Positions 7,224 through 63,271 are shown, counted from the stretch's first letter. The stretch: DNA of 64,000 bases from an uncultured Clostridia bacterium (GCA_949949035.1 CATLHJ010000002.1:53680-117679); one strand, 5' to 3'. Notes: generated by a model not told the origin, from the sequence alone. Numbers and translations: made by a program.

Positions 7224-8213
7224 TTACAGCGTGCGGTCGTCGATGGTTTTGGTTTGCTGCTCAATCACTGCTTGGATCTTATCATTAAAAGATAAAGTTC
7301 TTCGTTTCGTTAAACTGTTGATTTGGGCTTGATTTATGCCACGTTGGATAGCCATATCATGTAGTCCGTACAAACTTTCGTTATACAAGGCTAACTCGAC
7401 GGCTTTTTTTAATAGGCCTTGGTCGGCGAATGTTTCACGTGCAACAATTGCTAATGATTGGTTCATATATTGGTTCGTGTTTTGGGTCAGTTCTTGGTAA
7501 CTGATGTTAGCATCGGCTAACTTTCCAGTTAAAAAAAAGCTACCTTCTTTCATATCACCGTTATTTGACGGGAAATCATCACCGTAGTAGGTATTGGCAA
7601 ACCCCCCCAAGGAGCGGTTATAGGCCGCGTGAGATAATTGATAGTAACTACATTTGTATTTCATATAAGTTTCCACATCGGTTTTTAATGTTTTTTCCAT
7701 TACGGCAAAGTATTGGGCAAAGTTTTCGCTATTGTTTTTTACATTGTCACCGATGTATTGTTGGTCATTGGTACTTTTCTTTAAGGCCGTGTCCAAGGTT
7801 TTATAGAAATCGTTGCTCTCGATTTGGTCGGGCGTTACCTTGTCGTGTAAGTCCTTCTGCAATTCAGCCACTTTCTGCTTCATATATTTTTGGGCATCGG
7901 CAAAAGCGTCATCAAATTTTTTGTCACGATGATCGGGTGAGAGCCAAGTCTGGTCTTTTTTATCAGCAAAGCATTGTCCCAGGTAGTCGCCGGTCACATA
8001 GTAGTCGGGGAAAGCAGTGGTGATATCGCCTTTATCTTTATCTTTGTCTTTATTGGGGTCATCGCCGGTATCATGCCAATCGTCTTCAATGGTTGTGTTG
8101 CCCGTTGGGCTGGGGCAACCCGTAAGCCCCGTGATTAACGCGGTCGCCAAAACGCCGGCCTGTAAACCTTTCGTAAAATATTTGCCTAATTTTTTTAATT
8201 TATTATTTTCCAT
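7224..8213 (-). CDS. Hypothetical lipoprotein
   Basis: Basic N-terminus, hydrophobic stretch and lipobox LTGC; promoter TTGACT-17-TATATT ends 7 nt before the ATG. Confidence 0.75.
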   Translation of the reverse strand: MENNKLKKLGKYFTKGLQAGVLATALITGLTGCPSPTGNTTIEDDWHDTGDDPNKDKDKDKGDITTAFPDYYVTGDYLGQCFADKKDQTWLSPDHRDKKFDDAFADAQKYMKQKVAELQKDLHDKVTPDQIESNDFYKTLDTALKKSTNDQQYIGDNVKNNSENFAQYFAVMEKTLKTDVETYMKYKCSYYQLSHAAYNRSLGGFANTYYGDDFPSNNGDMKEGSFFLTGKLADANISYQELTQNTNQYMNQSLAIVARETFADQGLLKKAVELALYNESLYGLHDMAIQRGINQAQINSLTKRRTLSFNDKIQAVIEQQTKTIDDRTL

Positions 8214-8409
8214 ACTTTATAATATACGCGCTTCCTGTGGCAAAGTCAACCCTTTATCCAATTTATTTTCGCCAATTTGCCACCCCCGCGCCCCCACGAC
8301 CTTGATTACCCCGCCGGTAGTGGTTGCCAAACCATAAAAACCACCAGACGCGGGGCGGGTCGGGGTTTTCCCTTGTCAAAAACACCCCAAAAGAGTTACC
8401 ATATCGCGT

Positions 8410-10605
8410 ATGATTATCGAAGCCGTGGTTGCGTCCGTGGTGTACAGTAACGCCGACAGTGGCTATACCGTGTTGCGGTTAGACAACAATTTGGTGGCCG
8501 TTGGTATCGCACCGTTCGCCACGGTCGGGGCGGGGTATCGTTTTGTCGGCGAATTCGTCAACAACGCCAAGCACGGCAAGCAGTTTGCGTTCAGTGCGAT
8601 TACCTTATTACCGCCCGATACGGAAGCCAAAATTTTGGCTTTTTTGGGTGGGGGCTTATTACCCGGTGTGGGACCCGCGACCGCCCGCAAAATCGTGAAG
8701 CACTTCGGCACGCGGACTTTGGACGTCATCGCCAACGAGCCACAGGCCTTGGCACAAGTACGGGGTATTTCAGCACTTAAAGCCAAAATAATTGCCGCCA
8801 ATTACCGCACCATTTGCCAAATGCAAGACGTGATGATGTGGCTGTACCGTTTCGACATCAGTTTGAACTTGGCGCAAAAAATTTACCAACATTACGGCGA
8901 CGATACGATCGCCACGGTCGCCAAAAACCCGTACGTCTTAATTGAAACCATTGACGGGATTGGCTTTACCACCGCCGACAACATGGCGAAAACCTTGGGC
9001 GTGGCCTATAACGGGACGTTCCGCGTACGGGCGGGGGTGGTGCACATCTTAAAGGTCAGCGCCGAAACCGACGGGCACACTTACGTGGCGTTAACGGACC
9101 TGATTGGTAAGGTCTGTCGTTTATTACGCATTAAAATGGAAGAGTTGACCCCGACCTTTAACACGATTATTAACGAGTTATGTATGGACCGGGTAGTGGT
9201 GGCCGTCACGATCGACGGTGAACCCGGCATCCAGTTAATTCGTTTCTTTAACGCCGAAAAGTCAATTGCCCAAAAGTTGCATCTGTTAATGCAGGAGCCG
9301 AAAGTGCCCGACCGTGTGGACGAGTTAATCGCCCACTACGAGCAGTTGCGGGGGCTTACTTTTCACACCACCCAAAAGCAGGCGATCAAGCAGGCGGTCA
9401 GTGGCGGGGTTACCGTCATCACGGGCGGGCCCGGCACCGGTAAGACCACGATTATTAACGCGATTTTGTACATTAATCAAGCCAATCAATTAACTACCCA
9501 ACTTTTGGCGCCGACGGGACGGGCGGCCAAGCGCATAGAAGAGGCCACGGGGCAATCGGCGATGACCATTCACCGCTGCTTGGATATGGACTACAAAATG
9601 GGTGCGGGCAAGTTTACTTATGACGACCCAAATCACTTTATTCGCCAAGATATGGTAATTGTCGACGAAGTGTCGATGTGCGATTGTCTGCTGACCGCGT
9701 CGTTATTGCGGAAAATTTTGGTTGGCACCAAAGTGGTCTTGATTGGTGACATTGACCAGTTACCATCGGTTGGGGCGGGGAATGTTCTGTCAGACATTAT
9801 TACGTCGGGCGTGGTGCCGACCATTCGCTTGACCCAAATTTACCGCACGGCGGAAAACGCGACGATTGCGATTAACGCTCACCGCATTAACAACGGGGAA
9901 ATGCCTTTGCTGGATAACAAAAGCAGTGACTTCTTTTATTGTAATGTCGAAACGCCAGAACTGATTAAAGACGAAATATTGGGGTTGTGTTTAACACGAT
10001 TACCACAATATCTTGGGGTCGACCACGGTAAGATACAGGTTTTGGCGCCGATGAAGTTGGGGGCGGCGGGGGTAATCAATTTGAATCAATGTTTGCAAGC
10101 CGCGCTTAATCCGCCTGGCGACAACAAGGACGAATACTCTTACGGCGACACGATTTTCCGTTTGGGCGACCGCGTGATGCACACGGTAAACAATTACCAG
10201 CAGGAATGGACCCGCAACCACGAACAAGGTAAAGGTATTTTTAACGGGGACATTGGCAAAATTGTGGCCATTAACGCGGACAACGGCGAAATTACCGTCG
10301 AGTTGGAAGACGGGCGGGTTACTATTTACCCGCGTTCCGATTTAAGCGCGTTGACTTTGTCCTACGCGATTACGGTGCATAAAAGTCAGGGGTGCGAATT
10401 TGATGCAGTGGTAATTCCCGTAGTGGCGGGGGCGTACATGATTATGACCCGCAATCTTTTGTATACGGCGGTCACGCGCGCCAAACGGTTAGTGGTTTTG
10501 GTTGGTAAAACCGAAAACATCCAAAAAATGGTGGCGAATACTTACACCAAAAAACGTAACAGTTGCCTGAATAAATATTTACAATATTTTCAAGATATGG
10601 CATAA
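8410..10605 (+). CDS. recD2: ATP-dependent RecD2-like DNA helicase
   Basis: N-terminal OB/HhH region, Walker A GGPGTGKT, VDEVSM, YAITVHKSQG, LLYTAVTRAK. Confidence 0.95.
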   Translation: MIIEAVVASVVYSNADSGYTVLRLDNNLVAVGIAPFATVGAGYRFVGEFVNNAKHGKQFAFSAITLLPPDTEAKILAFLGGGLLPGVGPATARKIVKHFGTRTLDVIANEPQALAQVRGISALKAKIIAANYRTICQMQDVMMWLYRFDISLNLAQKIYQHYGDDTIATVAKNPYVLIETIDGIGFTTADNMAKTLGVAYNGTFRVRAGVVHILKVSAETDGHTYVALTDLIGKVCRLLRIKMEELTPTFNTIINELCMDRVVVAVTIDGEPGIQLIRFFNAEKSIAQKLHLLMQEPKVPDRVDELIAHYEQLRGLTFHTTQKQAIKQAVSGGVTVITGGPGTGKTTIINAILYINQANQLTTQLLAPTGRAAKRIEEATGQSAMTIHRCLDMDYKMGAGKFTYDDPNHFIRQDMVIVDEVSMCDCLLTASLLRKILVGTKVVLIGDIDQLPSVGAGNVLSDIITSGVVPTIRLTQIYRTAENATIAINAHRINNGEMPLLDNKSSDFFYCNVETPELIKDEILGLCLTRLPQYLGVDHGKIQVLAPMKLGAAGVINLNQCLQAALNPPGDNKDEYSYGDTIFRLGDRVMHTVNNYQQEWTRNHEQGKGIFNGDIGKIVAINADNGEITVELEDGRVTIYPRSDLSALTLSYAITVHKSQGCEFDAVVIPVVAGAYMIMTRNLLYTAVTRAKRLVVLVGKTENIQKMVANTYTKKRNSCLNKYLQYFQDMA

Positions 10606-10614
10606 TAACGAGTA

Positions 10615-11616
10615 ATGGACATCCTTAACGAACTGGCGAAAATTGCTAACGAAGCCGATTTGGCGAATTTCCACAAAAAATACTTGTCGAAAACGGGAGA
10701 ATTGACCGCTCAATTACAGAACTTGAAAAATTTGCCCGCTGACCAACGGGCCACAGCGGGTAACCGTATCAATGAACTTAAACGCAATGTGGAACGCGAA
10801 TTTTTCCGCAAGCAGGCCGTCTTGCGCGAACAGGCCATTAACGACCAATTACGAGCAGATCCGTTAATCGACATCACGGTACCCGCGATTAAAGAACCAC
10901 AGGGTAGTTTGCACCCAATTACCTATTTAACCCGTCGGGTCAGTGAAATCTGTCGCTCAATGGGGTTCTTGGTGGTGGACGGTAATGAGGTGGTTACCGA
11001 ATTTGAAAACTTTGACGCGGTGAACATTCCTGCCGACCATCCCGCCCGTGATATGCAAGACACATTTTGGTTGACTAACGGTAAGTTGTTGAAAACCCAA
11101 ACTTCGGCCATGCAAAACGCGATTTTGCGGAAGTACGGCCCTGTCGTATCGGCGATTTTCCCCGGTCGTTGTTACCGCAATGAAGCCACGGACGCCAGCC
11201 ACGAATTCGCGTTCTTCCAATGTGAAGGCATGATGGTGGGGGAGAACATTTCCATTGCAAATTTAATCTACGTAATGAAAACCATCTTGTCCGAAGTTTA
11301 TGGCAAGGAAATTGAGGTGCGGTTACGTCCGGGCTATTTCCCGTTTGTTGAACCGGGTTTTGAATTGGATGCCAGTTGTCCGTTCTGTGGCGGTAAGGGG
11401 TGCAGCGTTTGTAAGCATTCGGGTTGGATTGAATTCTGCGGTTGCGGGATGATTCACCAAAACGTGTTACGCCAAGCCAATGTTGATCCCGAACGTTACC
11501 AAGGTTTTGCTTTCGGTTTTGGGTTGACCCGCATGGCGATGATGCAGTACGCGATTAACGATATTCGCCTGCTTAACTCGGGCAATTTGGAATTTTTGCG
11601 AGGTATTAGACGATGA
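10615..11616 (+). CDS. pheS: Phenylalanine--tRNA ligase alpha subunit
   Basis: HPARDMQDTF, YFPFVEP, GFAFGFG motifs. Confidence 0.97.
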   Translation: MDILNELAKIANEADLANFHKKYLSKTGELTAQLQNLKNLPADQRATAGNRINELKRNVEREFFRKQAVLREQAINDQLRADPLIDITVPAIKEPQGSLHPITYLTRRVSEICRSMGFLVVDGNEVVTEFENFDAVNIPADHPARDMQDTFWLTNGKLLKTQTSAMQNAILRKYGPVVSAIFPGRCYRNEATDASHEFAFFQCEGMMVGENISIANLIYVMKTILSEVYGKEIEVRLRPGYFPFVEPGFELDASCPFCGGKGCSVCKHSGWIEFCGCGMIHQNVLRQANVDPERYQGFAFGFGLTRMAMMQYAINDIRLLNSGNLEFLRGIRR

Positions 11617-13928
11617 AAATTTCGGTTAATTGGTTAAATGATTATGTAGACTTGTCGGGCATTACGGCAACGGAAATTGCCGACAAATTAACGCAGATAA
11701 CTTGTGAAGTTGAAGAGGTTATTCCGGTTGGGCGTGACCTAAACACCATAGTGGTGGGTAAAATTTTAACTTGCGTCAATCACCCGCAAAGTGACCACTT
11801 GCACCTACTGACGGTAGATATCGGGAAAAAACAACCACTAAATATTGTTTGTGGCGCCCCGAACGCCCGCGCGGGAATTATTGTAGCGGTGGCGACCGTT
11901 GGCACTGTGATGCCCAACGGTATGAAAATTGAAGCCGTCAAACTGCGCGGTTGCGATAGTTGCGGTATGTGTTGTTCCTATGCCGAACTGGGTTACAAAG
12001 AAGAAAACGAAGGCATTATTGAATTACCAGCGGATACTAAAATCGGTACACCAATTACCGCCGTTCTGTCAGGGTTGACAGACGATATTATTGATATTGA
12101 CAACAAGAGTATTACTAACCGCCCCGACTTGTGGGGACATTATGGTCTAGCGCGGGAACTGGCGGTAATTTTTGATCGCCCATTAAAGTCAATTAGCATT
12201 AAAAACGTATCTGCTTATGACGAGTTGCCGCCGTTAAACATTAAAATCGAAAACGACCATTGTTTGTCGTACGGTGCCATTAAGGTCACGAACGTGGGGG
12301 ACTGTGTGTCACCCGACTTAATCCAAAATCGTTTGTATAAACTGGGACATAACAGTCATGGTTTATTGGTCGATTTGACCAACTACGTGATGTTGGCGTT
12401 TGGTAATCCGTTGCACGCCTTTGACGCCAGCAAGGTGGAAAAAATCAGTATTGGTACGGTGCCGGTCGGTACCAAATTTACCACACTTAAAGATAACCAA
12501 ATTACTGCCACCAAGGAAATGTTGTTTATTAAATCTAATGGTAAACCAGTGGCACTGGCGGGGATTATGGGTGGTAAGAATAGCGAAATTACGCCCGCCA
12601 CCCGTGACGCAGTGTTTGAAATTGCGACTTTTGACGCGGCGAACGTGCGTCGCACTTCGGTAGCGGTGGGGATTCGCAGCGACGCCAGTATGCGTTACGA
12701 AAAAGCGTTAGACCCCGAAACTAACTGGTTAGCGACAGCAGAGTTGTTGCGTTTACTGCAACAATACGCTCCACAAGCCAAGGTCGTTTCGTCCTTTACC
12801 CGAGTGGTTAACCCCAAGGCGGTGCGCTCTACCCAAACTATCGTAGTTCCGAAGCAACGGCTGTGCAGTTTTACGGGGGTCGATTTCACCAACCAATACG
12901 ACTTGGTCAAACGTAAATTGACGGCCTTGGGTTTTCAACCTAAAATAACCGCCAAAGATATTACCGTGACCGTACCGTCATGGCGCAGTTGGAAAGATAT
13001 TACTACACCCGCCGACGTAATCGAAGAAATTATTCGTAATTATGGCTACCAAAATATTCCGCCGGTGGCACCGACGGTACAAATTAAGCCGTTGCCATAC
13101 GATGCTTACGCGGCCGCTAAAGAACAAATTAAGGACGCTTTGGCGTGGCATTATTACTTTAACGAAGTACATACCAATATATGGTACGATACTAAAGCGT
13201 TAAAGAATATGGGCTTAACGCCGCCGTCGTACGCGACAATTGCCAATCCGTTCAATAAGGACGACAACCAAATTCGTAGTACCATGTTGCCGAGTATGCT
13301 GACCGTGGCGGTAAACAATAAATTGCAACCGATGGTGCGCGTATTTGAAATTGGTCGCGTTATTAACGCCGATGGTACCGAAAGTGAACACCTGGCGGGG
13401 ACAGCGGTGTGTTTACCTTATCATGAAGTCGCACGTATGCTGGTCAGTATTTTTGATCGCCTTGGTTTTGTGTTAGAATATAAGATTAACACTGTGGACA
13501 ATCCCGTTTTTCACCCGACCAATAATGCGGAAATTTGGTGTAACGGACAGTGCGTAGGTAAGATTGGTATTGTTCACCCGCGGGTACTCGGTTATGCGCA
13601 AGCGGTGGCTTTTGAAATTGATTTGTCGACCATCGCGTGGGACAGCGTTCCGCAAAATTTAGCGCCCGTGTTGTCGAAATTTCCCAAAACGGAACTGGAT
13701 TTCACATTTGTTTGGAACGGAATATACGCGGATTTAGCCAAGATTATGGCGGGGTTTAATCATCCGTACGTGACGGGGCAACACTTAACCGCGGTGTATG
13801 AAAACCGGTATACCTTAACTTTCACCGTTTCTTGCCGCGAAAAAACGCTTGACAAAGAAGAAATTAAGCAGATTCACCAAGAAATTGTTGACTTTGCCGC
13901 TAAAAATAGTGTACATCTTTATCAGTGA
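11613..13928 (+). CDS. pheT: Phenylalanine--tRNA ligase beta subunit
   Basis: IVCGAPN, NRPDL, LAGIMGG, DVIEEI; ATGA overlap with pheS. Confidence 0.96.
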   Translation: MKISVNWLNDYVDLSGITATEIADKLTQITCEVEEVIPVGRDLNTIVVGKILTCVNHPQSDHLHLLTVDIGKKQPLNIVCGAPNARAGIIVAVATVGTVMPNGMKIEAVKLRGCDSCGMCCSYAELGYKEENEGIIELPADTKIGTPITAVLSGLTDDIIDIDNKSITNRPDLWGHYGLARELAVIFDRPLKSISIKNVSAYDELPPLNIKIENDHCLSYGAIKVTNVGDCVSPDLIQNRLYKLGHNSHGLLVDLTNYVMLAFGNPLHAFDASKVEKISIGTVPVGTKFTTLKDNQITATKEMLFIKSNGKPVALAGIMGGKNSEITPATRDAVFEIATFDAANVRRTSVAVGIRSDASMRYEKALDPETNWLATAELLRLLQQYAPQAKVVSSFTRVVNPKAVRSTQTIVVPKQRLCSFTGVDFTNQYDLVKRKLTALGFQPKITAKDITVTVPSWRSWKDITTPADVIEEIIRNYGYQNIPPVAPTVQIKPLPYDAYAAAKEQIKDALAWHYYFNEVHTNIWYDTKALKNMGLTPPSYATIANPFNKDDNQIRSTMLPSMLTVAVNNKLQPMVRVFEIGRVINADGTESEHLAGTAVCLPYHEVARMLVSIFDRLGFVLEYKINTVDNPVFHPTNNAEIWCNGQCVGKIGIVHPRVLGYAQAVAFEIDLSTIAWDSVPQNLAPVLSKFPKTELDFTFVWNGIYADLAKIMAGFNHPYVTGQHLTAVYENRYTLTFTVSCREKTLDKEEIKQIHQEIVDFAAKNSVHLYQ

Positions 13929-30346: not shown

Positions 30347-30374
30347 CTTGGGGTAGCATTTCTGCTAAATTTAT

Positions 30375-30755: not shown

Positions 30756-30813
30756 TTTTGCTCACGTTCTTTTCCTTGAATAATGGGTAGTTGTGTGCTA
30801 TAATATTATTTGT

Positions 30814-38823: not shown

Positions 38824-38838
38824 AAGGAGATAAATATA

Positions 38839-42176: not shown

Positions 42177-42258
42177 CGCTGTTATTTTAACATAATGTTG
42201 TTTAACTTTCAAGATGTAGGGTAAAATTTATGAAGAACTGAAAAATATTTTCAAAAAA

Positions 42259-42301: not shown

Positions 42302-42345
42302 AGTGATGAAACCGCGGAAAGCGGTGAAAAAAGGAGAAAAAGAAA

Positions 42346-42927: not shown

Positions 42928-42957
42928 TTGACAGGGGGGGGGGGGGGGTAATATTAT
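42928..42957 (+). promoter_or_regulatory. Promoter with a G15 homopolymer spacer
   Basis: TTGACA (42928-42933), G15 (42934-42948), TAATATTAT, ATG at 42960. Confidence 0.75.
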
Positions 42958-42959
42958 AT

Positions 42960-43526
42960 ATGTTTGATAAAATAATTGAATTAAGTTTTAATTGGGTTTG
43001 GTGGGTTTCGCAAGGGTTTGCGGTAATTGGACTTATTTTCTCAATTATCTCTATGCAACAAAAATCACGTATCAGTATTTTGTCGTGGAATTTGGCGGCT
43101 GCGGTTGCCATGTTTATCAGTTGTTGCTGCTTGTGGCAGTTTTCGGCCATGATTTTAATGGGTGTTTCATCAGTGCGCAGTGTTACCGCGTTGATTTTTG
43201 CCATTAAACCAAATGTAAAAAAATGGATTTTCATTACCACCAACGTTGTTTTGGCATTATCGATTATAGTTTTTAATATCGTTTTCTGGAATGGTTATTT
43301 AAGCATTTTTAGTATTATAATTGGCATCGGCTCTATTATCTCCTTTGCCCAAGTCAAACCGAAAAATATCCGCTTGACGATTGCCCCAATTCAGGTTATT
43401 TCCACCATATATTATATATTGATGTTGGCGCCAATTAACGCCATGATTGAACTAACCGCACTGATTAGTGCGATTGTTGGTATGATCCGCTTGGATTTTA
43501 AGAAGCAACCGGTCGCGGCAAAGTAA
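42960..43526 (+). CDS. YgjV-family inner membrane protein
   Basis: SQ.F..IG......S.QQKSR..IL, multiple TM segments. Confidence 0.75.
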   Translation: MFDKIIELSFNWVWWVSQGFAVIGLIFSIISMQQKSRISILSWNLAAAVAMFISCCCLWQFSAMILMGVSSVRSVTALIFAIKPNVKKWIFITTNVVLALSIIVFNIVFWNGYLSIFSIIIGIGSIISFAQVKPKNIRLTIAPIQVISTIYYILMLAPINAMIELTALISAIVGMIRLDFKKQPVAAK

Positions 43527-46369: not shown

Positions 46370-46404
46370 TTTGACAGTAAAGCACGAAACTGGTATAGTA
46401 GTTT

Positions 46405-47598
46405 ATGAAAAACATTTACTATATCGGTTATCGCCAAGGTGACGCCGAAGCTAGCTTCTATAACCAAACCATGGACGGCTATTTTGCGGGCAGTATTACC
46501 GAGCACGGGAATAACAAGCGCGGTAATATTGCCCACAATGCGTCTACGCGCGTGCAATTAAGTAGCAATGTTGAATTTGATGAACGCAACGACAAAATTA
46601 TGCGGGTCTTCGTTAATGAAAAATGTCGTGAAATTGTTGCTCGCGTGCCGGATGCTTATTTTTACCCCTATTCGCCCGTTTACGCCAGTTACGTACCACC
46701 GGAATTACAAGATCGTATCTTGTGTTGTAATAACCCCAAAGTATTTGCGGTGCTGGATAGTAAATTCCAATTTCGCAAAATTTTTAAGGATATCTTGCCG
46801 TTTGCCCCTTACGAATATGTGGTGGGGCAGACCATAATTGAGCGCTTAAAAGATGGTACTTACCCCAACCAAAAGGAAGTGGTAATTCAACGTGACTACG
46901 GCTCCGGTGGTTTTGGTACCTTGGTGGTAAATAAGGTTTATTTCGCCGACCCCACTTTGAAAGAACGGGCAATTAAAGAAATTCACCCCAAGGAAACTTA
47001 TTTGGTCAGTGATTATATTGAATCATTGTGTTCGACCAGTTTGCATTTACTTGTATCGAACAACGAAGTGTTAATTCTACCGTCAACGGTACACGCCTAC
47101 CACGGTTATCACAAGTTAGCGTATATGGATCTGAAAGCCTTTACCAAATTACCATCCGCCATGGTGCAACAGGCTTACGATTGTGGCCTCAAATTCGGCA
47201 AGTTCGTGCAAAAGAGTAAAGAATACCGTATGCGTGGTTGGCTGCACATTGACCTTTTGTTCGGGAAAGATGGTAAAGTGTACGCCATGGAAGCTAACCC
47301 GCGTTTTGGTGGGTCAGTTGGTTTACAAAACCGTATGTTCCGTGCGGCAGGGTTGGAATCTGTGTTTGAATATAATTATCGTGCTTTCTATGATAAAAAA
47401 ACCAATTTTGCTCCGGGGCTGAAAAAATTAAAACCTTTGGGTATTTACCGTCATGCTAATGTCGAACGTAACGCGGATGGGGAATTGGTCAGTTTGGAAA
47501 ACGAAAACGTTAATCGCGAGGGGTTTGATATGACCTTGTTGCGCGAAGAAGATGGTATGTACACGCACTCGGTTTACGAAATCCAAACGGAAGATTAA
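46405..47598 (+). CDS. ATP-grasp domain protein
   Basis: LDSK..FR, GSGG.GT, YLVS.YI, ID.L, MEANPRFGGS. Confidence 0.82.
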   Translation: MKNIYYIGYRQGDAEASFYNQTMDGYFAGSITEHGNNKRGNIAHNASTRVQLSSNVEFDERNDKIMRVFVNEKCREIVARVPDAYFYPYSPVYASYVPPELQDRILCCNNPKVFAVLDSKFQFRKIFKDILPFAPYEYVVGQTIIERLKDGTYPNQKEVVIQRDYGSGGFGTLVVNKVYFADPTLKERAIKEIHPKETYLVSDYIESLCSTSLHLLVSNNEVLILPSTVHAYHGYHKLAYMDLKAFTKLPSAMVQQAYDCGLKFGKFVQKSKEYRMRGWLHIDLLFGKDGKVYAMEANPRFGGSVGLQNRMFRAAGLESVFEYNYRAFYDKKTNFAPGLKKLKPLGIYRHANVERNADGELVSLENENVNREGFDMTLLREEDGMYTHSVYEIQTED

Positions 47599-49331: not shown

Positions 49332-49379
49332 ATCGTTATCTATGTTGCCAGTCGCAAAAATGTTTGGTATGCTTAATTT

Positions 49380-49937
49380 ATGACTAAGTTAAATTTTCCG
49401 TATCGCATCGAGGTGTCGGCACGGCATGTGCATTTGTCAGCGTCCGATTTTGCTACTTTGTTCGGGGCGAACGCTGTTGCCGAGAAGGTTAAGGATTTAA
49501 GCGTGGACGGCGAATTCAAAACCAACTGTACGGTGACCATAGTGGGGCCTAAACGTAATTTAGAACGGGTAGCGGTGTTGGGCCCGTGGCGTGACCAAAC
49601 GCAAGTTGAAATTAGTTTAACCGACAGTTATTTTTTGGGAATTCCCGACGTACCATATCGTTTGAGTGGTGATTTAGTGGGGTCGGCACCCGTGAAATTG
49701 GTAGGGCCTTGTGGTACCTTATCTTTGCCGGCGGGCTTAATTATTGCGTTGCGCCATTTGCACATTGACGCTGCCACCATGCGCAAGCACCATTTACAGC
49801 CTGGGCAGGCCGTGGATATTACTACCGATGGTCCCCGAGCGGTGACATTCCACAACGTCATGGTTCGCGAATCGCAGGTGGATATTCCCGTGGTACATTT
49901 GGATACCGACGAAGGTAATGCAATGACGGCTAAATAA
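49380..49937 (+). CDS. pduL: PduL-type phosphate acyltransferase
   Basis: VSARHVHLS, QVEIS.TD, R.SGDL.GS, RHLH, HLDTDEGNA. Confidence 0.92.
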   Translation: MTKLNFPYRIEVSARHVHLSASDFATLFGANAVAEKVKDLSVDGEFKTNCTVTIVGPKRNLERVAVLGPWRDQTQVEISLTDSYFLGIPDVPYRLSGDLVGSAPVKLVGPCGTLSLPAGLIIALRHLHIDAATMRKHHLQPGQAVDITTDGPRAVTFHNVMVRESQVDIPVVHLDTDEGNAMTAK

Positions 49938-52288: not shown

Positions 52289-54079
52289 ATGCAAAACAAA
52301 GGTTACCCCGAAGAATTTATCAAACGTGTTCGCGATGCCAGTAATATCGTAGATATTGCCAAAGGTTATTTGCCTTTGAAACAAAAGGGACAAGACTTTT
52401 GGGCTTGCTGCCCGTTCCACAGTGAAAAAACGCCCAGTTTTGCTATCAGTGCGCCAAAACAGTTTTATTACTGCTACGGGTGTCACGCCAGCGGTAATGT
52501 TTTCTCTTTGGTGATGAAGATGGAAAATCTGTCTTGGCGCGAAGCGGTAGAGCACTTGGCCAAAAAAGCCAATATCGAACTACCGCAAACCGCGGACAAC
52601 AGTGATTGGTTAAAGCTGCGACAAAAAAAAGAAAAAATTTATCAGGCTTTAATGTTGGCTCGTGATTATTATTGTCGGACCTTGCAACGTCCCGCCAATC
52701 GGGCGGCGGTAGAATACTTGCACCAACGTGGCATTGATGACGAATTGATTAAATTGTTCCACATCGGTTACAGTGACAGTTGGCAAGGGGTAGTTGATGA
52801 ACTGAAAAGTCATGGTATCAGTGAACAGTTGTTGCAGGAAGCAGGCATCGTGGCCAAAAACGAGCATGGTCGAATTTGGGATGCACAATTTGAACGGATA
52901 ACTTTTGCTATTCACGACGTTTATGGTAACTGTATCGGTTTTACTGGGCGCACCATGAAAAAGGATGAAAATTTGGCCAAATATAAAAATACGGCTGAAA
53001 CCATGGTTTTTAACAAAAGCAATATCGTATATGGCGTAGACGTGATGAAGGAAAAAACTCGCGGGCAGGGCATGGCGGGTTTGATTGTGGTTGAAGGTAA
53101 CGTTGATGAAATTGCCATGGTAAAAAACGGCTTCCCCAATACAGTAGCGTGCATGGGAACCGCCTTAACTAAGTTCCACGCGGGAATCATAGCACGGTTT
53201 AGCCGCGTAGTGTACCTGTGTCTAGATGGTGATAATGCGGGGCAGCACGCCACTTTGAAGTCGATTGATGTTTTACAGAACGCGGGGTTAGCCGTAAAAG
53301 TGGTAGTTTTACCTGATGGTCAGGACCCTGATGAATTTTTGCAAACTCACGGGGCTGCGGCCATGCAAAAAATGTTGGCCAACAGTATGGGGGGGATGGA
53401 ATTTAAGTTGGACTACTTAAAAAAACATAGCGATTTGACCAATCGGGTCGGTAAGGCCGAGTACCTTAATCAAGCGGTGGCTTTATTGGCAGAAATCCCT
53501 ACTATTGCCGAGCGTGAGTTGTACCTATCCGATGTTGCCGAAGCGGTCGGGGTAACGGTGGAAGCCATACGCAATACTTTGCTTTCACAATTAAGTAAAA
53601 AGGAAACACCGATAAAAAAGAAAGATGACACTATATATAGTGGTAATTATGGTAATAACAACCACAATATACAAAAGCGAAAAGTTCCGCCTAAGGTATT
53701 GGCCGCCGAGGCGGTAATTACCAAGGCCGTCTTGCATGATCGTGAATATGCCCGCGATTTTCCGCGGGAAGAGTTGCCAACCTTGCACAATGTGGTTTAC
53801 CAAAAAATTGTTGCCGAGGGCTTGAAACTGAAAGACATATATGATATTTTAGATGAAAAAGAGTTAGCCATGATTGACCCGCCATTACTTGATGAGCGTA
53901 CTGAACAATCGGCACAGGATGAAATAGCGGAATGGCAAGATTGTTTTAATCTCTTGCGGAAGAGTAAGTTGGAACAACAGCGGGACGCGGCTACCGATAT
54001 TGCGACCAAAGCAAAGATCATTAAACAAATTAAAGCATTAGAAAAAGCGATGCAACAGCAAAAAGTGGAGGACATGTAA
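52289..54079 (+). CDS. dnaG: DNA primase
   Basis: CPFH.EKTPSF zinc finger, F.GR, KY.N, VEG..D, D.D.AG, DPDE. Confidence 0.97.
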   Translation: MQNKGYPEEFIKRVRDASNIVDIAKGYLPLKQKGQDFWACCPFHSEKTPSFAISAPKQFYYCYGCHASGNVFSLVMKMENLSWREAVEHLAKKANIELPQTADNSDWLKLRQKKEKIYQALMLARDYYCRTLQRPANRAAVEYLHQRGIDDELIKLFHIGYSDSWQGVVDELKSHGISEQLLQEAGIVAKNEHGRIWDAQFERITFAIHDVYGNCIGFTGRTMKKDENLAKYKNTAETMVFNKSNIVYGVDVMKEKTRGQGMAGLIVVEGNVDEIAMVKNGFPNTVACMGTALTKFHAGIIARFSRVVYLCLDGDNAGQHATLKSIDVLQNAGLAVKVVVLPDGQDPDEFLQTHGAAAMQKMLANSMGGMEFKLDYLKKHSDLTNRVGKAEYLNQAVALLAEIPTIAERELYLSDVAEAVGVTVEAIRNTLLSQLSKKETPIKKKDDTIYSGNYGNNNHNIQKRKVPPKVLAAEAVITKAVLHDREYARDFPREELPTLHNVVYQKIVAEGLKLKDIYDILDEKELAMIDPPLLDERTEQSAQDEIAEWQDCFNLLRKSKLEQQRDAATDIATKAKIIKQIKALEKAMQQQKVEDM

Positions 54080-54081
54080 CC

Positions 54082-55641
54082 ATGAAAGATAAGGAAAAAC
54101 TGGGAAAGAGTAAGGCGAAAGATAAAACTGCTAAAACGCCAACCAAAGTGACAACAGTAAACGCAACCGCCAAAACAATGACGAAGACCGCCAAAGTGAC
54201 AACGAAGGCTACCTTAAAAGCGGTGAAATTAAACAAGACTGCGGTTGTGCCTGCGGTACAAAAAACGTCCGTAGCTAAAGCAGCGGCCAAACCGGTAAGG
54301 GTGGCGAAATCTGTGGGTACCACGAAAACTACGACAAAAAAGACCTTAAATACTGCATCTAGTGCTAAAAAAGTCACGAAAACCACTAAAAATACCACGG
54401 CCAAGGCGAAAAAAGCGACCAAAATCTTAAAATCGACGAACGGTGCTAAATCTATTGCCACTGATACCGTTAAAGCCAAAGCTGTTGTGAAATTGGTTAA
54501 GAATGTCAAACCAAGTAAATCCGAGGCTAAGGCTGACCTTTCCGGAAAAACTACACCATCATCGGTGGTGTCGACCGGTGAAATGCGTCCGGAAATAGCC
54601 GAATTGATTAACCGTCTATTGGAAATTGATAAAGGGCGTGAGATTAAAGAAGACAAATTGACCATGATGTTGATTGAACGCGATGCTACCGCCACTGATG
54701 TGGAAAAAGCCAAAAATATTTTAACAAATGCGGGGATAACGATTAAAAAAACGACCGAAGATGATAAAATGAACTTGGACGCGATTGAAAAAATTATGTC
54801 CGAAGCGTCAGTTGATGACCCGATTAAAATTTATTTGCGCGATATTGGGCGTTATAAATTGTTGACGGCTGAAGAAGAAGTTGAAATCGCTAAACGCATG
54901 GCGGACGGCGATTTGGAGGCTAAAGAAAAACTTAACCAAAGCAACTTGCGCTTGGTGGTGCATATCGCTAAAAGATACGTTGACCGTACACCCTTAAAAT
55001 TACTTGATTTGATCCAAGAAGGCAACCTGGGCTTAATGAAGGCGGTAGATAAGTTCGATTATCGCAAAGGCTTCCGTTTTTCGACTTATGCCACTTGGTG
55101 GATTCGCCAATCGATTACGCGGGCCATGGCTGACCAAAGCCGTATTGTGCGCTTGCCCGTGCATATGGTAGAGACTATCAACCGTTTGGCTAAGACTACT
55201 AAAATGTTACAACAAGAATTTGGACGCGAACCAACTACTGCGGAATTGGCCGAACGTATGGAAGTTGCCGAAGAAAAGATTGAAGAAATTCGCCGGATCA
55301 GCCAAGATACCACCAGTATTGATGCGCCGTTGGGAGACGAAGGGGATGGTACGATTATGGATACACTTTCCGACCCGTCGATTATTCAACCCGAGGACAA
55401 TACTTTTAAGGAAGGCCTGAAATCGCAACTGATGTTAATTATTGCGTCCTTAACGCCGCGTGAACAAAAGGTGATTCGTTTACGGTATGGTTTGGATGAT
55501 GGGCGACCCCGTACTTTGGAGGAAGTAGGGCGTATCTTTGAGGTCACTCGTGAACGTATTCGCCAAATTGAAGCCAAAGCCTTGCGTAAACTGCGCAACC
55601 CGAACCGTACCCGTCGCCTGAAGGATTTTGTAGAAGCCTAA
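54082..55641 (+). CDS. sigA: Primary sigma factor with a long K/T/A-rich N-terminal extension
   Basis: DDPIKIYL, NLRLVV.IAK.Y, DLIQEGN.GL, FSTYATWWIRQ, TRERIRQIE.KAL. Confidence 0.97.
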   Translation: MKDKEKLGKSKAKDKTAKTPTKVTTVNATAKTMTKTAKVTTKATLKAVKLNKTAVVPAVQKTSVAKAAAKPVRVAKSVGTTKTTTKKTLNTASSAKKVTKTTKNTTAKAKKATKILKSTNGAKSIATDTVKAKAVVKLVKNVKPSKSEAKADLSGKTTPSSVVSTGEMRPEIAELINRLLEIDKGREIKEDKLTMMLIERDATATDVEKAKNILTNAGITIKKTTEDDKMNLDAIEKIMSEASVDDPIKIYLRDIGRYKLLTAEEEVEIAKRMADGDLEAKEKLNQSNLRLVVHIAKRYVDRTPLKLLDLIQEGNLGLMKAVDKFDYRKGFRFSTYATWWIRQSITRAMADQSRIVRLPVHMVETINRLAKTTKMLQQEFGREPTTAELAERMEVAEEKIEEIRRISQDTTSIDAPLGDEGDGTIMDTLSDPSIIQPEDNTFKEGLKSQLMLIIASLTPREQKVIRLRYGLDDGRPRTLEEVGRIFEVTRERIRQIEAKALRKLRNPNRTRRLKDFVEA

Positions 55642-55684
55642 TTTTAACATTGCTTAAATTGTCGACGCGTGGTATGATAAAAGT

Positions 55685-56374
55685 ATGAATGCGAGTATTA
55701 CAAAGTTGTTAACTGCCCAAAAAATTGATCACGAGCGTTTGGTCTTGTTACAGGCTTTGACGAAGGGTAGCGTCAAGGTAGAATTAGACAAAGCCAATCA
55801 AACCATTGTTGACTCCAAGAAAAATTTGTTACAGTTGGAAGCCGATGCTAAAAATTTGAAAGATAATTACGAAAAAGTGAGTAAAATTATTACCGAAACT
55901 TTGGCTTTAGTGAAACAGGCTAATCAAGCCCAAAGCCAAGATATGGGCGAATACGGCGATTATTTGTCGAAACTATCAATTTTGGAAAGTCAGTTGGCGG
56001 ATATCGAACGTAAAATTATGGAAAAATCGTCCGCCTTTAAGAACGCTACCGTTTCCGTGGTGAAGGCCAGTGATTTTGTAAAGAAGAATTTACCAACTTA
56101 TGAACAACAAAAACAGCAAACTGACGTCCAAGTAAAGGCTTTGGAAAAACAGTTTGCGGAAGCGACTAACGAAGTCGATGAAAAATTGTTGGCTAAATAC
56201 AAAGCCGCACGTAAAAGTAAGGTTGGGGATGTTAAAGACGTGTTGGTACCATTAACGGCTGATAGGCGTTGCCAAGGGTGCTATATGGATGTGCCGGCGG
56301 CCATTACTAGTAAAATCAGTGCCGATGGTTGGGCGCTTTGCGAAGAATGTGGAAGGATTATTTATAAAGCATGA
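55685..56374 (+). CDS. Coiled-coil protein with a C4-type zinc ribbon (CT398/DUF164-like)
   Basis: Long coiled coil; CQGC...CEECGRI. Confidence 0.85.
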   Translation: MNASITKLLTAQKIDHERLVLLQALTKGSVKVELDKANQTIVDSKKNLLQLEADAKNLKDNYEKVSKIITETLALVKQANQAQSQDMGEYGDYLSKLSILESQLADIERKIMEKSSAFKNATVSVVKASDFVKKNLPTYEQQKQQTDVQVKALEKQFAEATNEVDEKLLAKYKAARKSKVGDVKDVLVPLTADRRCQGCYMDVPAAITSKISADGWALCEECGRIIYKA

Positions 56375-57675: not shown

Positions 57676-57726
57676 AATTGCATAAATTTGTTTGTCACGG
57701 TTAAATTTAATGGTATAATTATTATT

Positions 57727-57945
57727 ATGTTATATCCGAAAATTGAAGATTGTATTGCCAAAGCTGGTAACAGTAAATATGTTTTAGTGGCGATGGTGGC
57801 TAAACGTGCCAAGGACTTAATCACGCGTAACGCGGGACAATTTACCGCCGGTAAGGAAAAACAAATTTCTTACGCTATGCGGGAAGTCATGGACGGGCGC
57901 ATGGTACCCGTTTATGGCGCTAATCAAGTGGTTAATGCTAAATAA
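57727..57945 (+). CDS. rpoZ: RNA polymerase omega subunit
   Basis: MLYP.I, SKY.LV..VAKRAK, K.IS.A..E. Confidence 0.9.
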   Translation: MLYPKIEDCIAKAGNSKYVLVAMVAKRAKDLITRNAGQFTAGKEKQISYAMREVMDGRMVPVYGANQVVNAK

Positions 57946-59970: not shown

Positions 59971-59979
59971 GTATAGACT

Positions 59980-61230
59980 ATGGTACCGGTAGTGGTGGAT
60001 CGTTCTCAACGGCAACGTAATGCACAACGTAAAATTAAGCGCCCCAAGAAAGTCCGTGGGGTGAACGTACAGAAAATTGCGGTTACCATGCGTAAAATAA
60101 CCCCAAGATATTGTGATATTGGCTTATTGTTGGCGGTGCTGGGGTTGACGATTTTTGGCATTCTGATGATTTATTCCGCGTCGCATTATAATGCAACCAT
60201 TTATTATGATGACCCATTTTATTACACCGTTAAACAATTAATTGGTTTAATTATGGGGGTAGTCGGGTTGGTTATTATGTACTTTCTTGATTATCATAAT
60301 TGGCAAAAATTTGCTTATTTGATTTTTGGGTTAGCAGTCTTGTTGTTGGCGGCGGTTTTTATCCCCGGTATTGGTATCAGCAAACTGGGTGCTACCCGCT
60401 GGGTAGGTGTAGGGGGCTTCTCTTTACAACCTAGCGAAATTGCCAAGTTTGCTTTGGTGATTTTTGCCGCCAAAATTTTTGCCTTGCGCCCGAAAGTGAC
60501 CGGCGAGAAAACAACCATTACTCGTTTAGTGGCCCCGCGTTGGTGGCAAACGTTAGCAGTTCTGGCCGCGGGCGGGGTGCTTTGTCTGTTGATTATTCTG
60601 GAACCCAATATGTCCATTACCATGACCGTGGGGATTATCATGTTGGTGCTGTTGTTTTTGTGTGGGGTGCGCCTGAAGACCTTGGGGTTAATTTTGTTAC
60701 CGGCTTTAGCGGCGGTCGGGGTGATGCTGGTGGCCGAACCATACCGCTTAAAACGGCTCTCGGCGTTTGTTGACCCGTGGGCCAATCCTAAAGGCGAAGG
60801 TTTCCAGTTGATACAAAGTCTTTACGGCATTTCTAATGGTGGCTTCTTGGGTGTGGGCTACGGTAACAGTATGCAAAAAAATATGTTCTTACCATTTGCT
60901 GAAAGCGACTTTATCTTCGCTATTATTGCCGAAGAGTTCGGGTTAGTGGGCTGTTTGGCTCTATTCGCGGTATTTGGTTTGATTATTTATAAAATTATCC
61001 GAATCGGTTGCCAATGCCGTGATTATTTTGGTCGGTATTTGTGTTTTGGGGTTGGTACCGTTATTCTTGTGCAGTCGGCATTAAATTTTGCCGTGTCAAC
61101 GGGGTGTATTCCGCCTACGGGGTTACCGTTGCCGTTTATTTCCTTTGGTGGCACCAGCCTGTTGGTGTTTATGATGGCCATCGGCATGGTATTAAATGTG
61201 GACAAACAAAATAAAAAAATGCTATCATAA
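59980..61230 (+). CDS. ftsW: SEDS protein FtsW/SpoVE
   Basis: MIYSAS, GA.RW, QPSE.AK, DPW, ESDFIFAII.EE.G, PPTG.PLPFIS.GGTS. Confidence 0.92.
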   Translation: MVPVVVDRSQRQRNAQRKIKRPKKVRGVNVQKIAVTMRKITPRYCDIGLLLAVLGLTIFGILMIYSASHYNATIYYDDPFYYTVKQLIGLIMGVVGLVIMYFLDYHNWQKFAYLIFGLAVLLLAAVFIPGIGISKLGATRWVGVGGFSLQPSEIAKFALVIFAAKIFALRPKVTGEKTTITRLVAPRWWQTLAVLAAGGVLCLLIILEPNMSITMTVGIIMLVLLFLCGVRLKTLGLILLPALAAVGVMLVAEPYRLKRLSAFVDPWANPKGEGFQLIQSLYGISNGGFLGVGYGNSMQKNMFLPFAESDFIFAIIAEEFGLVGCLALFAVFGLIIYKIIRIGCQCRDYFGRYLCFGVGTVILVQSALNFAVSTGCIPPTGLPLPFISFGGTSLLVFMMAIGMVLNVDKQNKKMLS

Positions 61231-61234
61231 AAGT

Positions 61235-61786
61235 ATGCCTACACAAATTACGCATCTGGCCATCGCTAAACGTTATTTGGCACAACATCCGCACCAGATC
61301 AAGGACACGCAGCGTTTCCTTGATGGCAATGTGATGCCTGATTTAGTACCCGAAAAGGCGGCAGCGCATTGCGGAGTACGTACGGAGTTTAAGGACTTGG
61401 TGAAACGCAATCGGGAAAAGGTTAATCCCGAATTGTATCGTGCTACTCATGATATGAATGACGACTTTCACAAAGGTTGGTATTTGCATTTGTTGACCGA
61501 CGACCAATTTTATAATGTTTTTTTACGGGAATATTGTGCGGGCGTCAGTATCGATCAATCATCGATTGATATATTTGAAACCACACAACGCGATAAGGCC
61601 TATTTAATTGCTAAATACGGGGTTAGTTATAATGACGTCACTGATGCTCAAGCATTGATTGACATCAATGTCGCGTACGAAAAAGATCATCACCAACGTT
61701 ACGGCTACGATTACCAATTTACCATGCCATACACTTTGGCAGAATTGGACGCCTTTATCGAGCGAATAGCGCAGGCAACCATTTAA
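61235..61786 (+). CDS. Hypothetical protein, Zn-dependent phospholipase C-like fold
   Basis: MP...THL, G...PD, H, G.YLHL.TD. Confidence 0.65.
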   Translation: MPTQITHLAIAKRYLAQHPHQIKDTQRFLDGNVMPDLVPEKAAAHCGVRTEFKDLVKRNREKVNPELYRATHDMNDDFHKGWYLHLLTDDQFYNVFLREYCAGVSIDQSSIDIFETTQRDKAYLIAKYGVSYNDVTDAQALIDINVAYEKDHHQRYGYDYQFTMPYTLAELDAFIERIAQATI

Positions 61787-62226
61787 TTTTGCAATTTATC
61801 AATAAATAAAATGCCGTCCATGTGGTCCATCTCGTGACCGCAACAAACGGCGTCGCGACCGCGAAAGGTTTGGGTATGTGGTTGGCCGTTACGGTCTTGA
61901 AATTCTACCGTAACCAAGTGTGGACGACGTACGCGACCGCTGATTCCCGGACAAGACAGGCAACCTTCGCCCGCTACGCGCAGGTTTTTGGCCGCTTTGA
62001 TAATGGGGTTAATGATTTCCACAATGCCAAATTCGTCGGTTAATAAGACCGCCATGCGATAAAGTACGCCAACCTGCACCGCAGCAATGCCCACACCATT
62101 AGCGCGGAGCATGGTTTCTTGCATATCGTCTAATAGTTCGTGCACGCGTGGTGAAAAATCATCAACTGGTTTGCTGTGCTTGCGGAGCAGTGGGTTACCT
62201 TCTTTGATAATTGTTAATCTTGCCAT
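61783..62226 (-). CDS. def: Peptide deformylase
   Basis: GVGIAAVQ, EGCLS, HEMDH. Confidence 0.95.
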   Translation of the reverse strand: MARLTIIKEGNPLLRKHSKPVDDFSPRVHELLDDMQETMLRANGVGIAAVQVGVLYRMAVLLTDEFGIVEIINPIIKAAKNLRVAGEGCLSCPGISGRVRRPHLVTVEFQDRNGQPHTQTFRGRDAVCCGHEMDHMDGILFIDKLQN

Positions 62227-62356
62227 ATAAAACATTATAACACCAGATATGGTGGTGTGCAATTAAAATATTGGTATATATAGTGGTAATTATGATAATA
62301 ACAAATACTAGATATAGCCTTTGCCGACAAACGTTATTTTGTGTTATCATATAATT

Positions 62357-63271
62357 ATGAAAATTGCTTTTATGGGGTCACCACAGTTTGCCGCCAGTGT
62401 TTTGGCGGGTATTTTACCGTACCACGAAGTAGTTTGCGTGGTTACGCAACCGGACGCAGCAGTGGGACGTGGACAACAGGTACAGTTTAACCCCGTTAAA
62501 CGCTTGGCAATGGAATATGCTATCCCGGTGTTGCAACCTACAAAAATTAGTTTAGATTTGGCACCATTATTAGCGTTTAAGCCCGACATTATTGTCACCT
62601 GTGCTTTTGGACAAATTTTGCGGCAAAATGTATTGGACGCCGCGCCGTACGGTGTGATAAATGTACATGGCAGTTTATTACCACATTACCGTGGGGCGGC
62701 GCCAATTCAGTGGGCGGTGATTAACGGGGAAAAAGAAACGGGTATTACGATTGCGCAAACCGAGTTAGGGTTGGATTGTGGGGCAATTATTAACCAAATC
62801 AGCACGCCAATCGCTTCTGACGAAACCGCGGGCGATTTGTTCACTCGGTTACCTAGCCTTGCTGTGAGTGCCTTATTACAAGCGTTGTCGGCGATTGCGG
62901 ATGGTACGGCAACCTTTACGCCCCAAGACCACACCCAAGCTACTAATGCACCAATGTTAAATAAAGCTATGGCAAAAATTGATTGGCAACAAGACGCGGT
63001 AAAAATCGCTAACTTGGTTCGTGGGCTTAATCCGTGGCCAGTGGCGTATTTTACTTTGGATGGTGTCCCCGTGAAAGTTTATGCGGCGACAGTGGTTGAC
63101 GGCAAGGTTACCGCGGGAACGATAGTGCAATGCGACCCGAAACACGGACTGATTATTGGCTGTGGGCAGGGTTGTTTACGAATTGACCAATTGCAATTAG
63201 CGGGGAAAAAAATTACCACCGGGGCGGCGTTTTGCAATGGTCGCGACTTGTCCAATGCGAAAATTGATTAG
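62357..63271 (+). CDS. fmt: Methionyl-tRNA formyltransferase
   Basis: FMGSP.FA, VVTQPD, INVH.SLLP.YRGAAPIQ, PWP.A. Confidence 0.96.
   Translation: MKIAFMGSPQFAASVLAGILPYHEVVCVVTQPDAAVGRGQQVQFNPVKRLAMEYAIPVLQPTKISLDLAPLLAFKPDIIVTCAFGQILRQNVLDAAPYGVINVHGSLLPHYRGAAPIQWAVINGEKETGITIAQTELGLDCGAIINQISTPIASDETAGDLFTRLPSLAVSALLQALSAIADGTATFTPQDHTQATNAPMLNKAMAKIDWQQDAVKIANLVRGLNPWPVAYFTLDGVPVKVYAATVVDGKVTAGTIVQCDPKHGLIIGCGQGCLRIDQLQLAGKKITTGAAFCNGRDLSNAKID

Follow-up and report, generated by a model that had tools for sequence, protein, structure and literature searches.

Pervasive leaderless-type layout of operon-leading genes in an uncultured Clostridia bacterium and its closest relatives

A stretch of 64,000 nucleotides (nt) from an uncultured Clostridia bacterium (genome G000, 1.09 Mb in 42 contigs, 89.75% complete; contig C2, positions 53680-117679; the whole stretch is called the window) had been described in an earlier note as carrying about 16 genes in which a sigmaA promoter ends 5-9 nt before the ATG, with no Shine-Dalgarno (SD) site. 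Our analysis of the genome and its relatives supports a leaderless-type layout that is pervasive both genome-wide and within a clade of three genera, including the host genus. The reading that we consider very probable from the sequence data is that about half of the operon-leading genes are leaderless owing to sigmaA promoters adjacent to their start codons, leaders and T-boxes having been lost on the stem of the clade and the SD route having been kept. An ordinary sigmaA promoter would set the transcription start on the A of the start codon or no more than about 3 nt away from it, and the resulting leaderless mRNAs would be loaded by ribosomes at the 5' end without an SD site. The ancestors would have been SD-led, with their 5' leaders lost on the stem of this three-genus clade of about 1 Mb genomes, and the tRNA-synthetase genes would have lost their T-boxes along with them. 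SD sites would be retained by genes inside operons and at the head of most ribosomal-protein operons, so that the cell likely runs both initiation routes.

In the host genome 1020 genes were called, with starts picked by coding potential only and hence blind to upstream motifs, and a three-class mixture model (SD, leaderless-type or neither) was fitted on 1000 genes; first genes were those divergent from, or at least 35 nt away from, the previous gene. The model learned a TTGACA-like and a TATAAT matrix, with a spacer of 17-18 nt (0.92) and a gap to the start codon of 5-8 nt (0.87). It assigned 0.475 of 569 first genes to the leaderless type, 0.38 to SD and 0.145 to neither, vs 0.17, 0.72 and 0.11, respectively, of the internal genes. 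Confident calls comprised 307 leaderless-type genes, 241 of them among the 569 first genes, and 471 SD genes; by posterior, 34% of all genes are leaderless-type. The enrichment of TANNNT at about -12 that the earlier note had expected genome-wide is borne out by a positional histogram, in which a TA...T begins at -13, -12 and -11 in 59, 64 and 57 of 542 first genes, with counts of 8-26 at -45 to -15. Likewise, TTG followed by A or C is found at -36 and -35 in 35 and 27 of these genes, and in 15 or fewer elsewhere. The same peaks are weak in 431 internal genes.

Several controls indicate that this layout is specific. Shifting the promoter window by 10-28 nt rendered leaderless fractions of 0.08-0.10 vs 0.48. 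Of the 569 first genes, 130 passed a fixed threshold (score 5.93, the 25th percentile of leaderless-type genes); among intergenic decoy ATGs the number was 18 of 575, and 20 shuffles rendered 2.15 +/- 1.4 (maximum 6). An SD-like 4-mer is present in 15 of the 307 leaderless-type genes vs 446 of the 471 SD genes. The earlier proposal that leaderless initiation is the default for first genes is therefore right as to its pervasiveness, in the genome and in the clade, but too strong as a rule, since 0.38 of first genes are SD-led, the anti-SD tail of the 16S rRNA is intact with its canonical CCUCC, and seven of nine sampled ribosomal-protein operon heads keep an SD site.

That the motif is a promoter follows from its presence before RNA genes: with a search span of 60 nt, the same matrices match 36 of 44 tRNA and tmRNA genes, 7-51 nt before them, vs 16 of 285 internal SD genes. 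A TG extension is found in 114 of the 307 leaderless-type genes. Position -1 plays no part in the model; 61% of these 307 genes have a T there vs 24% of the 471 SD genes, and a pyrimidine occupies -1 in 44 of 44 genes with a gap of 5 nt, 75 of 110 with a gap of 6 and 49 of 88 with a gap of 7. This bias fits the start-site rule of a pyrimidine at -1 and a purine at +1. Start codons (ATG/GTG/TTG) number 279/26/2 in leaderless-type genes vs 440/15/16 in SD genes, in keeping with leaderless mRNAs in general, which start with ATG or GTG and avoid TTG. The promoters of SD-led first genes are located mostly 19-50 nt upstream and none at 3-10 nt, so that leader lengths appear to be bimodal. The transcripts of leaderless-type genes, therefore, likely start at the ATG.

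Scored with the fixed matrices on sampled stretches, four more genomes of the host genus, g1, have first-gene leaderless fractions of 0.37-0.59 (G032 being assigned to the genus by its tree position); two g18 genomes have 0.55 and 0.40, and genus g15 has 0.40 (n = 10). Values in 29 other genomes of the family range over 0.00-0.30, and those in four families elsewhere in the order over 0.00-0.04. Pooled confident first genes amount to 68 of 166 in the clade relatives (mean 0.46), 88 of 1008 in the rest of the family (0.115) and 1 of 257 in the other families (0.013). Hence the use that had been ascribed to the lineage as a whole holds within the clade, but most other genera of the family that were sampled lie at 0-0.3. 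Genera g1 and g18 group with support of 100 on IF2, as do g1, g15 and g18 on IF3; g15 was selected for the length of its IF3 match at a time when neither its promoters nor its T-boxes had been inspected, and it conforms in both respects. Among orthologue pairs of leaderless-type genes, 41 of 50 within the clade are leaderless, whereas 193 of 266 are SD-led and 24 leaderless in the rest of the family, and 13 of 16 are SD-led and none leaderless in other families. The -35 box, the -10 box and their spacing are kept in orthologues, and the spacers change; the N-termini agree within 8 residues in 96 of 113 leaderless-type genes vs 134 of 166 SD genes. Because the orthologues outside the clade are mostly SD-led, and given the tree, the ancestors would have been SD-led and leaders were likely lost on the stem of the three-genus clade, above a low family-wide level.

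Genomes of the host genus measure 0.6-1.0 Mb, those of the family (at least 54 genera) 0.7-1.6 Mb and those of other families of the order 1.4-3.2 Mb in a first draw. We take UBA1242 to be the likely family label for the host genome and Christensenellales that of its order. A record named 'Christensenella sp. UBA6345' nests within the host family on the IF2 tree. Another, G033 (L022), deposited as 'Prevotella sp.', is the same genome as G001, placed in the host Clostridia genus by GTDB, and is likely a depositor's mislabel.

The probable loss of leaders is accompanied by an apparent loss of T-boxes. The T-box model RF00230 has no match in 18 clade genomes (82-93% complete, as far as completeness is stated) but at least one in 55 of 57 other genomes of the family (the misses being G072 and G070), in the UBA6345 record and in 8 of 8 other families. 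An independent T-box pattern recovers 15 of 16 known elements, and its 18 matches in the host genome all lie inside genes. Of the T-box-led genes of relatives, 14 of 16 have a match in the host genome, mapping to six genes: ileS, pheS, thrS and serS, which are confidently leaderless-type; glyS, which is uncertain; and leuS, which is internal with an SD site. Among the 17 tRNA-synthetase genes located (a count that excludes LysRS and GluRS, and in which some individual names are presumed from motifs), the call is confidently leaderless-type for 12 and uncertain for glyS (0.52), and the other four lie inside operons and have an SD site. The glmS ribozyme was found in none of 39 genomes, outgroups included, and is uninformative.

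Function classes were drawn from genes for which the sampled loci contain a homologue, namely 45 of 113 leaderless-type and 41 of 41 SD-first genes, and from targeted searches. The leaderless-type sample includes EF-P, PGK, aldolase, pyruvate kinase, bL28 and uL13, and infB, fmt and def are also of this type. The SD-first genes include uS2, uS10, uS12, uS13, uS15, bS16, bS21, IF1, DnaK and two GTPases of the EF-G/EF-Tu type; infC keeps its SD site, with a start that we read as ATT. Leaders thus seem, as judged from these classes, to persist where output is highest or autoregulation requires them. The infB gene (L290, G000:C8) is leaderless-type in G000, G032 and G005, and IF2 favours leaderless initiation in vitro; a leaderless infB, and also fmt and def, could possibly constitute a positive feedback.

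Two proteins bearing on initiation are altered in the clade. In 6 of 6 clade sequences vs 0 of 36 others, IF3 carries five inserted residues around a conserved GR in the C-terminal hairpin (L300:1474-2007, corresponding to G000:C7, minus strand; also L296-L299 and L306). This GR aligns with Gly158-Arg159 of Thermus IF3 (alignment count one below the paper's numbering), which lies near A+1, U+2 and the anticodon stem, in a hairpin that nears the start codon in cryo-EM structures (PMC5037330). The residue after the RGR loop (Thermus Glu126) is K, A or N, which is clade-specific. YchF, in turn, lacks, by a clean deletion, 62 residues corresponding to 139-198 of Haemophilus influenzae 1JAL (L313:1501-2418, corresponding to G000:C16, plus strand; also L311 and L312), which by our reading of a review would be its helical domain, a domain whose role is called unknown in that review (PMC8779481). 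Genera g1 and g15 share the deletion, which is present in 8 of 8 host-genus genomes scored (aligned for three; G032 rendered no match at the cut-off) and in G036. YchF is full-length in g18 and 28 other genomes, as well as in 119 of 120 further genomes of the order, the remaining one having no match. The loss of a domain from a near-universal ATPase is of note whatever its tie to leaderless mRNAs.

Other candidate markers or correlates were discarded. A one-residue insertion before the RGR loop of IF3 is also present in G101, G038 and G077, and a low IF3 profile score is shared by G052, G101 and G038, which nevertheless have leaderless fractions of 0.01-0.05. The 16S tail is canonical, bS21 is present in 5 of 5 genomes and KsgA in 40 of 40. 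The bS1 gene rendered no match at an E-value of 1e-25 in eight genomes of the host genus (the tree-placed G032 included), but it is present in 2 of 2 g18 genomes, and outside the clade no more than 9 of 26 genomes of the family have a match, several of those lacking one having a leaderless fraction near 0. Apart from this, bS1 appears to be patchily lost or diverged in the host family, with a match at 1e-25 in 11 of 34 genomes, in stand-alone frames of 343-398 residues (aa); in four other families its frames are of 700-741 aa and likely correspond to fusions.

It could be argued that the start-adjacent promoters are real but minor, most mRNA coming from upstream promoters or read-through with an SD-less leader. 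The 66 of 307 leaderless-type genes that lie within 35 nt of a same-strand upstream gene could indeed be co-transcribed with it, but 131 of the 235 first genes of this type are transcribed divergently from the adjacent gene, a second strong promoter is found in only 0-4 of the 307 per 8-nt bin from 11 to 122 nt upstream, and the boxes and their spacing are conserved while spacers vary among orthologues; we regard this possibility as improbable. Even less probable is that TANNNT represents an AU-rich, non-SD ribosome-binding signal in the mRNA, of the kind proposed for group B genomes, rather than a promoter. It does lie at an SD-like distance and in 17% of internal genes, but it is accompanied by a -35 box at 17-18 nt and frequently by the TG extension, it precedes genes of untranslated RNAs, it is three times commoner at operon heads, and the host genus shows no bS1 match at the above cut-off. 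The least probable of these explanations is that AT-rich intergenic DNA yields the motif by chance, or that start codons were misplaced. The upstream regions are 62% AT, and in low-GC relatives the bare TANNNT count does not exceed that of neighbouring windows (e.g., 9 of 44 in G005), but chance is contradicted by the positional peaks, by the decoy, shuffle and shift controls and by N-terminal homology, and more AT-rich relatives score near 0.

Whether the initiation machinery has followed is a different matter. One reading is that the clade moved from SD-led to largely leaderless expression and remodelled its initiation machinery to match, as could be suggested by the insertion in the IF3 beta-hairpin, which inspects the start codon, the YchF domain lost in two of the three genera, the leaderless infB and the disappearance of the T-box regulon, with the altered IF3 hairpin and shortened YchF perhaps easing the leaderless route. 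We consider such co-adaptation rather doubtful. The other, which we find somewhat likelier to hold than not, is that streamlining alone was at work, a small and rapidly evolving genome having shed its leaders through drift and deletion and coping with ordinary translation machinery, and the changes in IF3 and YchF being unrelated passengers on a long branch; it competes with co-adaptation only, not with the leaderless mRNAs themselves. The following observations speak against co-adaptation: the clade stems are long (0.48 on IF2, 0.69 on IF3), with all the traits on one branch (n = 1); YchF is full-length in the equally leaderless-rich g18 (0.55, 0.40); the leaderless-rich Thermus has an ordinary IF3 hairpin; genera at 0.2-0.3 have an ordinary IF3; and in 22 of 186 orthologue pairs the host member is shortened by more than 12%. 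The shorter upstream gaps of leaderless-type genes (median 83 vs 132 nt) also fit streamlining. On the other hand, equally small genomes of the same family have fractions of 0-0.1, 41% of leaderless-type first genes have at least 100 nt free upstream, and the IF3 insertion, absent from all 36 other IF3s, sits in the hairpin described as approaching the start codon (PMC5037330).

Some points weigh against the leaderless reading itself, or against its extent and its origin on the clade stem. The percentages come from our own gene caller and model, not GeneMarkS-2, with matrices trained on G000 itself, and 'first gene' is defined by the above distance rule. Gaps of 8-10 nt in 64 of the 307 leaderless-type genes likely entail leaders of 1-4 nt rather than strictly none. 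Relatives were sampled on 12-100 kb each, with 10-77 first genes, so that per-genome values are noisy, and single shifted-promoter controls in them reach 0.28. Since other genera lie at 0.2-0.3, the clade is the extreme of a gradient. The trees are quick single-gene ones (IF2, IF3) with no bootstrap, G036 being placed by IF3 only. Finally, 40 of 54 T-box candidates in G000 were scored, and clade genomes are incomplete, at 82-93%.

Within the window, all 16 starts that had been listed are ATGs of open reading frames (ORFs) with a TANNNT ending 5-9 nt upstream, and 14 of them score at least 5.93 with the matrices, which were trained on G000 with the window genes included; those at 31970 and 42960 are weak. 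On the plus strand, the predicted promoters with their starts comprise TTGTCA-18-TACCAT-7-ATG of recD2 (8373..8412, score 7.1), TTGAAT-17-TATAAT-9-ATG, with a likely start site 2-3 nt before the ATG (30776..30816, 8.8), TTGACA-18-TATTAT-7-ATG (34811..34850, 8.2), TTGAAA-18-TAAACT-7-ATG (35763..35802, 6.2), and TTGACA-17-TAAAAT-6-ATG of an MGDG-synthase-like gene, which has two tandem ATGs, the spacing agreeing with the second (40184..40221, 9.5). They also comprise TTGACA-17-TATAGT-5-ATG (46371..46407, 8.7), TTGCCA-17-TATGCT-6-ATG of pduL, divergent from glmS with 48 nt between them (49345..49382, 9.2), TTGCTT-17-TATGAT-6-ATG of a zinc-ribbon protein gene downstream of sigA (55650..55687, 7.4), TTGTCA-16-TATAAT-7-ATG of rpoZ (57692..57729, 8.0), TGGACA-18-TATCAT-6-ATG, located within the end of ftsW (61199..61237, 6.2), and TTGCCG-18-TATCAT-6-ATG of fmt (62321..62359), whose Met1 aligns with Met1 of four listed orthologues, all SD-led. 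On the minus strand there are TTGACT-17-TATATT-7-ATG of a 329-aa ORF (8211..8249, 9.3), TTGAAA-17-TAAAAT-7-ATG (42174..42212, 7.5) and TTGCAC-17-TATAAT-7-ATG of def (62224..62262), whose non-clade orthologues are SD-led in 4 of 4 among the matches listed. The two promoters that had been quoted as examples, at 46405 and at def, are exact. Further leaderless-type starts are those of pheS at 10615 (TTTACA-17-CATAAT-8-ATG, 10578..10617, plus) and of a 125-aa ORF at 30378 (TTGACT-17-TAAATT-6-ATG, 30343..30380, plus, 7.7), and probably a GTG at 13925, with a weaker candidate promoter within the end of pheT (TTGACT-18-TACATC-7-GTG, 13888..13927, plus, posterior 0.90, score 3.5). The pheS promoter overlaps the end of recD2, so that a T-box such as the one preceding pheS in G055 and G027 would not fit there. 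Names were assigned through NCBIfam for recD2, pduL, def, fmt, nusA, hsp18 and sigA, and through Pfam for rpoZ.

The remaining two starts are less clear. At 31970, in a gene for an NT5C/nucleoside hydrolase fusion (TTGTGC-17-TAGGAT-5-ATG, 31936..31972, plus), the score is 2.3 and the posterior 0.45 for leaderless vs 0.37 for SD, an ambiguous case in which AGGA may represent a weak SD site. At 42960 (TTGACA-G15-TAATAT-5-ATG, 42928..42962, plus, a YgjV-type membrane protein gene by Pfam) the absence of an SD site that had been claimed for all these genes does not hold strictly, as the G run between its two boxes can pair with the anti-SD (-11.5 kcal/mol). The gene caller took the start at 43053 here, Pfam favouring 42960, and it missed most island ORFs at 19-28 kb. 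The run of 15 G constitutes the entire spacer, 2 nt below the usual 17, and since 17 G would be optimal this may be a phase-variable switch in its weak state; the tract length comes from this assembly, four other contig sets, all of one study, being without the region of about 42870-43540. The contrasting SD-led genes named beforehand are confirmed, with nusA (start 38839; 38824..38841, plus, -8.9 kcal/mol), hsp18 (42330..42348, plus, -8.9 kcal/mol), sigA (54062..54084, plus, -9.3 kcal/mol, operon-internal behind dnaG) and two island genes pairing with the anti-SD at -8.4 to -9.3 kcal/mol. The observation that ORF starts had been set 36 nt too early is exact in three cases (42212, 62262 and 62321, each the first base of a -35 box). 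SD-assuming gene callers for Firmicutes can start such genes 33-39 nt early at the -35 TTG, which is in frame in 76 of the 307 leaderless-type genes.

Other features of the window were recorded along the way. The glmS gene (47640-49380, with pduL) has no SD site and no clear promoter (posterior 0.07). SigA (54082-55641, plus) is 519 aa long, and the best RpoD model spans residues 184-518 only, leaving a long N-terminal extension; the N-terminal part of PriA (57949-59970, plus, 673 aa) is shortened or divergent, as models of 730-790 positions match it from about residue 120 (model position 190-250). A gene resembling those for ATP-dependent DNA ligases (56371-57675, plus) lies between the zinc-ribbon gene and rpoZ, and an island with a serine recombinase and SD-led genes (16779-28985) adjoins the tmRNA. 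Rfam detected in the window the tmRNA and three tRNAs, and nothing else. For 54000-63900, the data sets listed as covering the region, four contig sets of one study, include none derived from RNA.

The known leaderless-rich groups are old and have no SD-led lineages close by, which makes it hard to explain why leaderless mRNAs serve a third of the genes in some phyla and almost none in others. The shift described here falls within a single family, with graded relatives and SD-led orthologues available gene by gene, and there are discrete candidates, the IF3 hairpin insertion and the YchF domain loss, that could be swapped into laboratory strains. If co-adaptation were true, the clade would be a natural experiment with SD-led sisters, naming the protein changes that allow a bacterium to live on leaderless mRNA. 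There also appears to be a regulatory cost, tRNA-synthetase genes having apparently swapped T-box control for a bare promoter.

Leaderless mRNAs are described as being read mainly by 70S ribosomes with formylmethionyl-tRNA, helped by IF2 and opposed by high IF3 (PMC9031893). In Escherichia coli, raised IF3 inhibits and deletion of ychF raises leaderless translation (PMC9031893, PMC8138138). The same two proteins are altered in the host clade, although the E. coli effects are of protein level or gene deletion, and the clade has a fixed IF3 insertion and a YchF deletion, whose role would be that of candidates. In the tabulated part of the GeneMarkS-2 survey, 366 of 370 Clostridia fall in group A, 36 Firmicutes in group C, averaging 19.4/17.1% leaderless (first genes/all genes), and 26 of 70 Mycoplasma also in group C; the corresponding figures are 43.7/36.8% for Mycobacterium and 49.3/40.7% for Deinococcus (PMC6028130). 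The layout found here departs from the SD-dominant group A of typical Clostridia, in which leaderless genes are negligible, its fraction of 0.48 contrasting with 0.00-0.04 in four families elsewhere in the order. It departs also from group B, in which the same non-promoter motif occurs in first and internal genes alike, with 0.48 vs 0.17, a -35 box and its presence before tRNA genes. Nor does it match the Candidate Phyla Radiation type, in which the anti-SD and SD are lost, since the CCUCC tail is intact and 471 of 1000 genes are confidently SD-led. In its sequence features it corresponds to group C (Actinobacteria, Deinococcus-Thermus), which is defined by a -10 box about 10 nt from first-gene starts, 25-50% of operons leaderless, and SD in internal and leadered first genes: here the box lies 6-8 nt away, the leaderless fraction is 0.48 by our own model, and SD is found elsewhere (0.72 of internal and 0.38 of first genes). 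Our 48% of first genes and 34% of all genes are on a level with the survey's predictions for Mycobacterium and Deinococcus, though only roughly comparable with them, the methods being different. The present case differs in its Clostridia host, in the full -35 box plus TATAAT, and in its probable recent origin within a family with SD-led sisters. Moreover, the Thermus, Deinococcus and Corynebacterium controls have T-box matches, unlike the host clade, and Thermus IF3 is without the hairpin insertion that the clade IF3 has.

Among Firmicutes, Zheng et al. (2011) report leaderless fractions of up to 16.6% (PMC3160421). The leaderless genes of Lactobacillales and Mycoplasma resemble those described here in their Firmicutes descent and in a TATAAT-type box adjoining the start, and Mycoplasma also in being genome-reduced (PMC3160421). 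Clostridioides difficile 630, of the same class, likewise has sigmaA promoters and leaders of 20-60 nt for its SD-led genes, but its transcriptome has six leaderless mRNAs among 1646 start sites and SD sites in about 90% of leaders (bioRxiv 10.1101/2020.08.10.244764). A literature search, most subscription journals being outside its scope, rendered nothing pairing leaderless genes with metagenome-assembled Clostridia, with Christensenellales or with UBA1242. The mechanism is one already known, in a lineage where it was unexpected and where T-box loss and initiation-factor changes accompany it.

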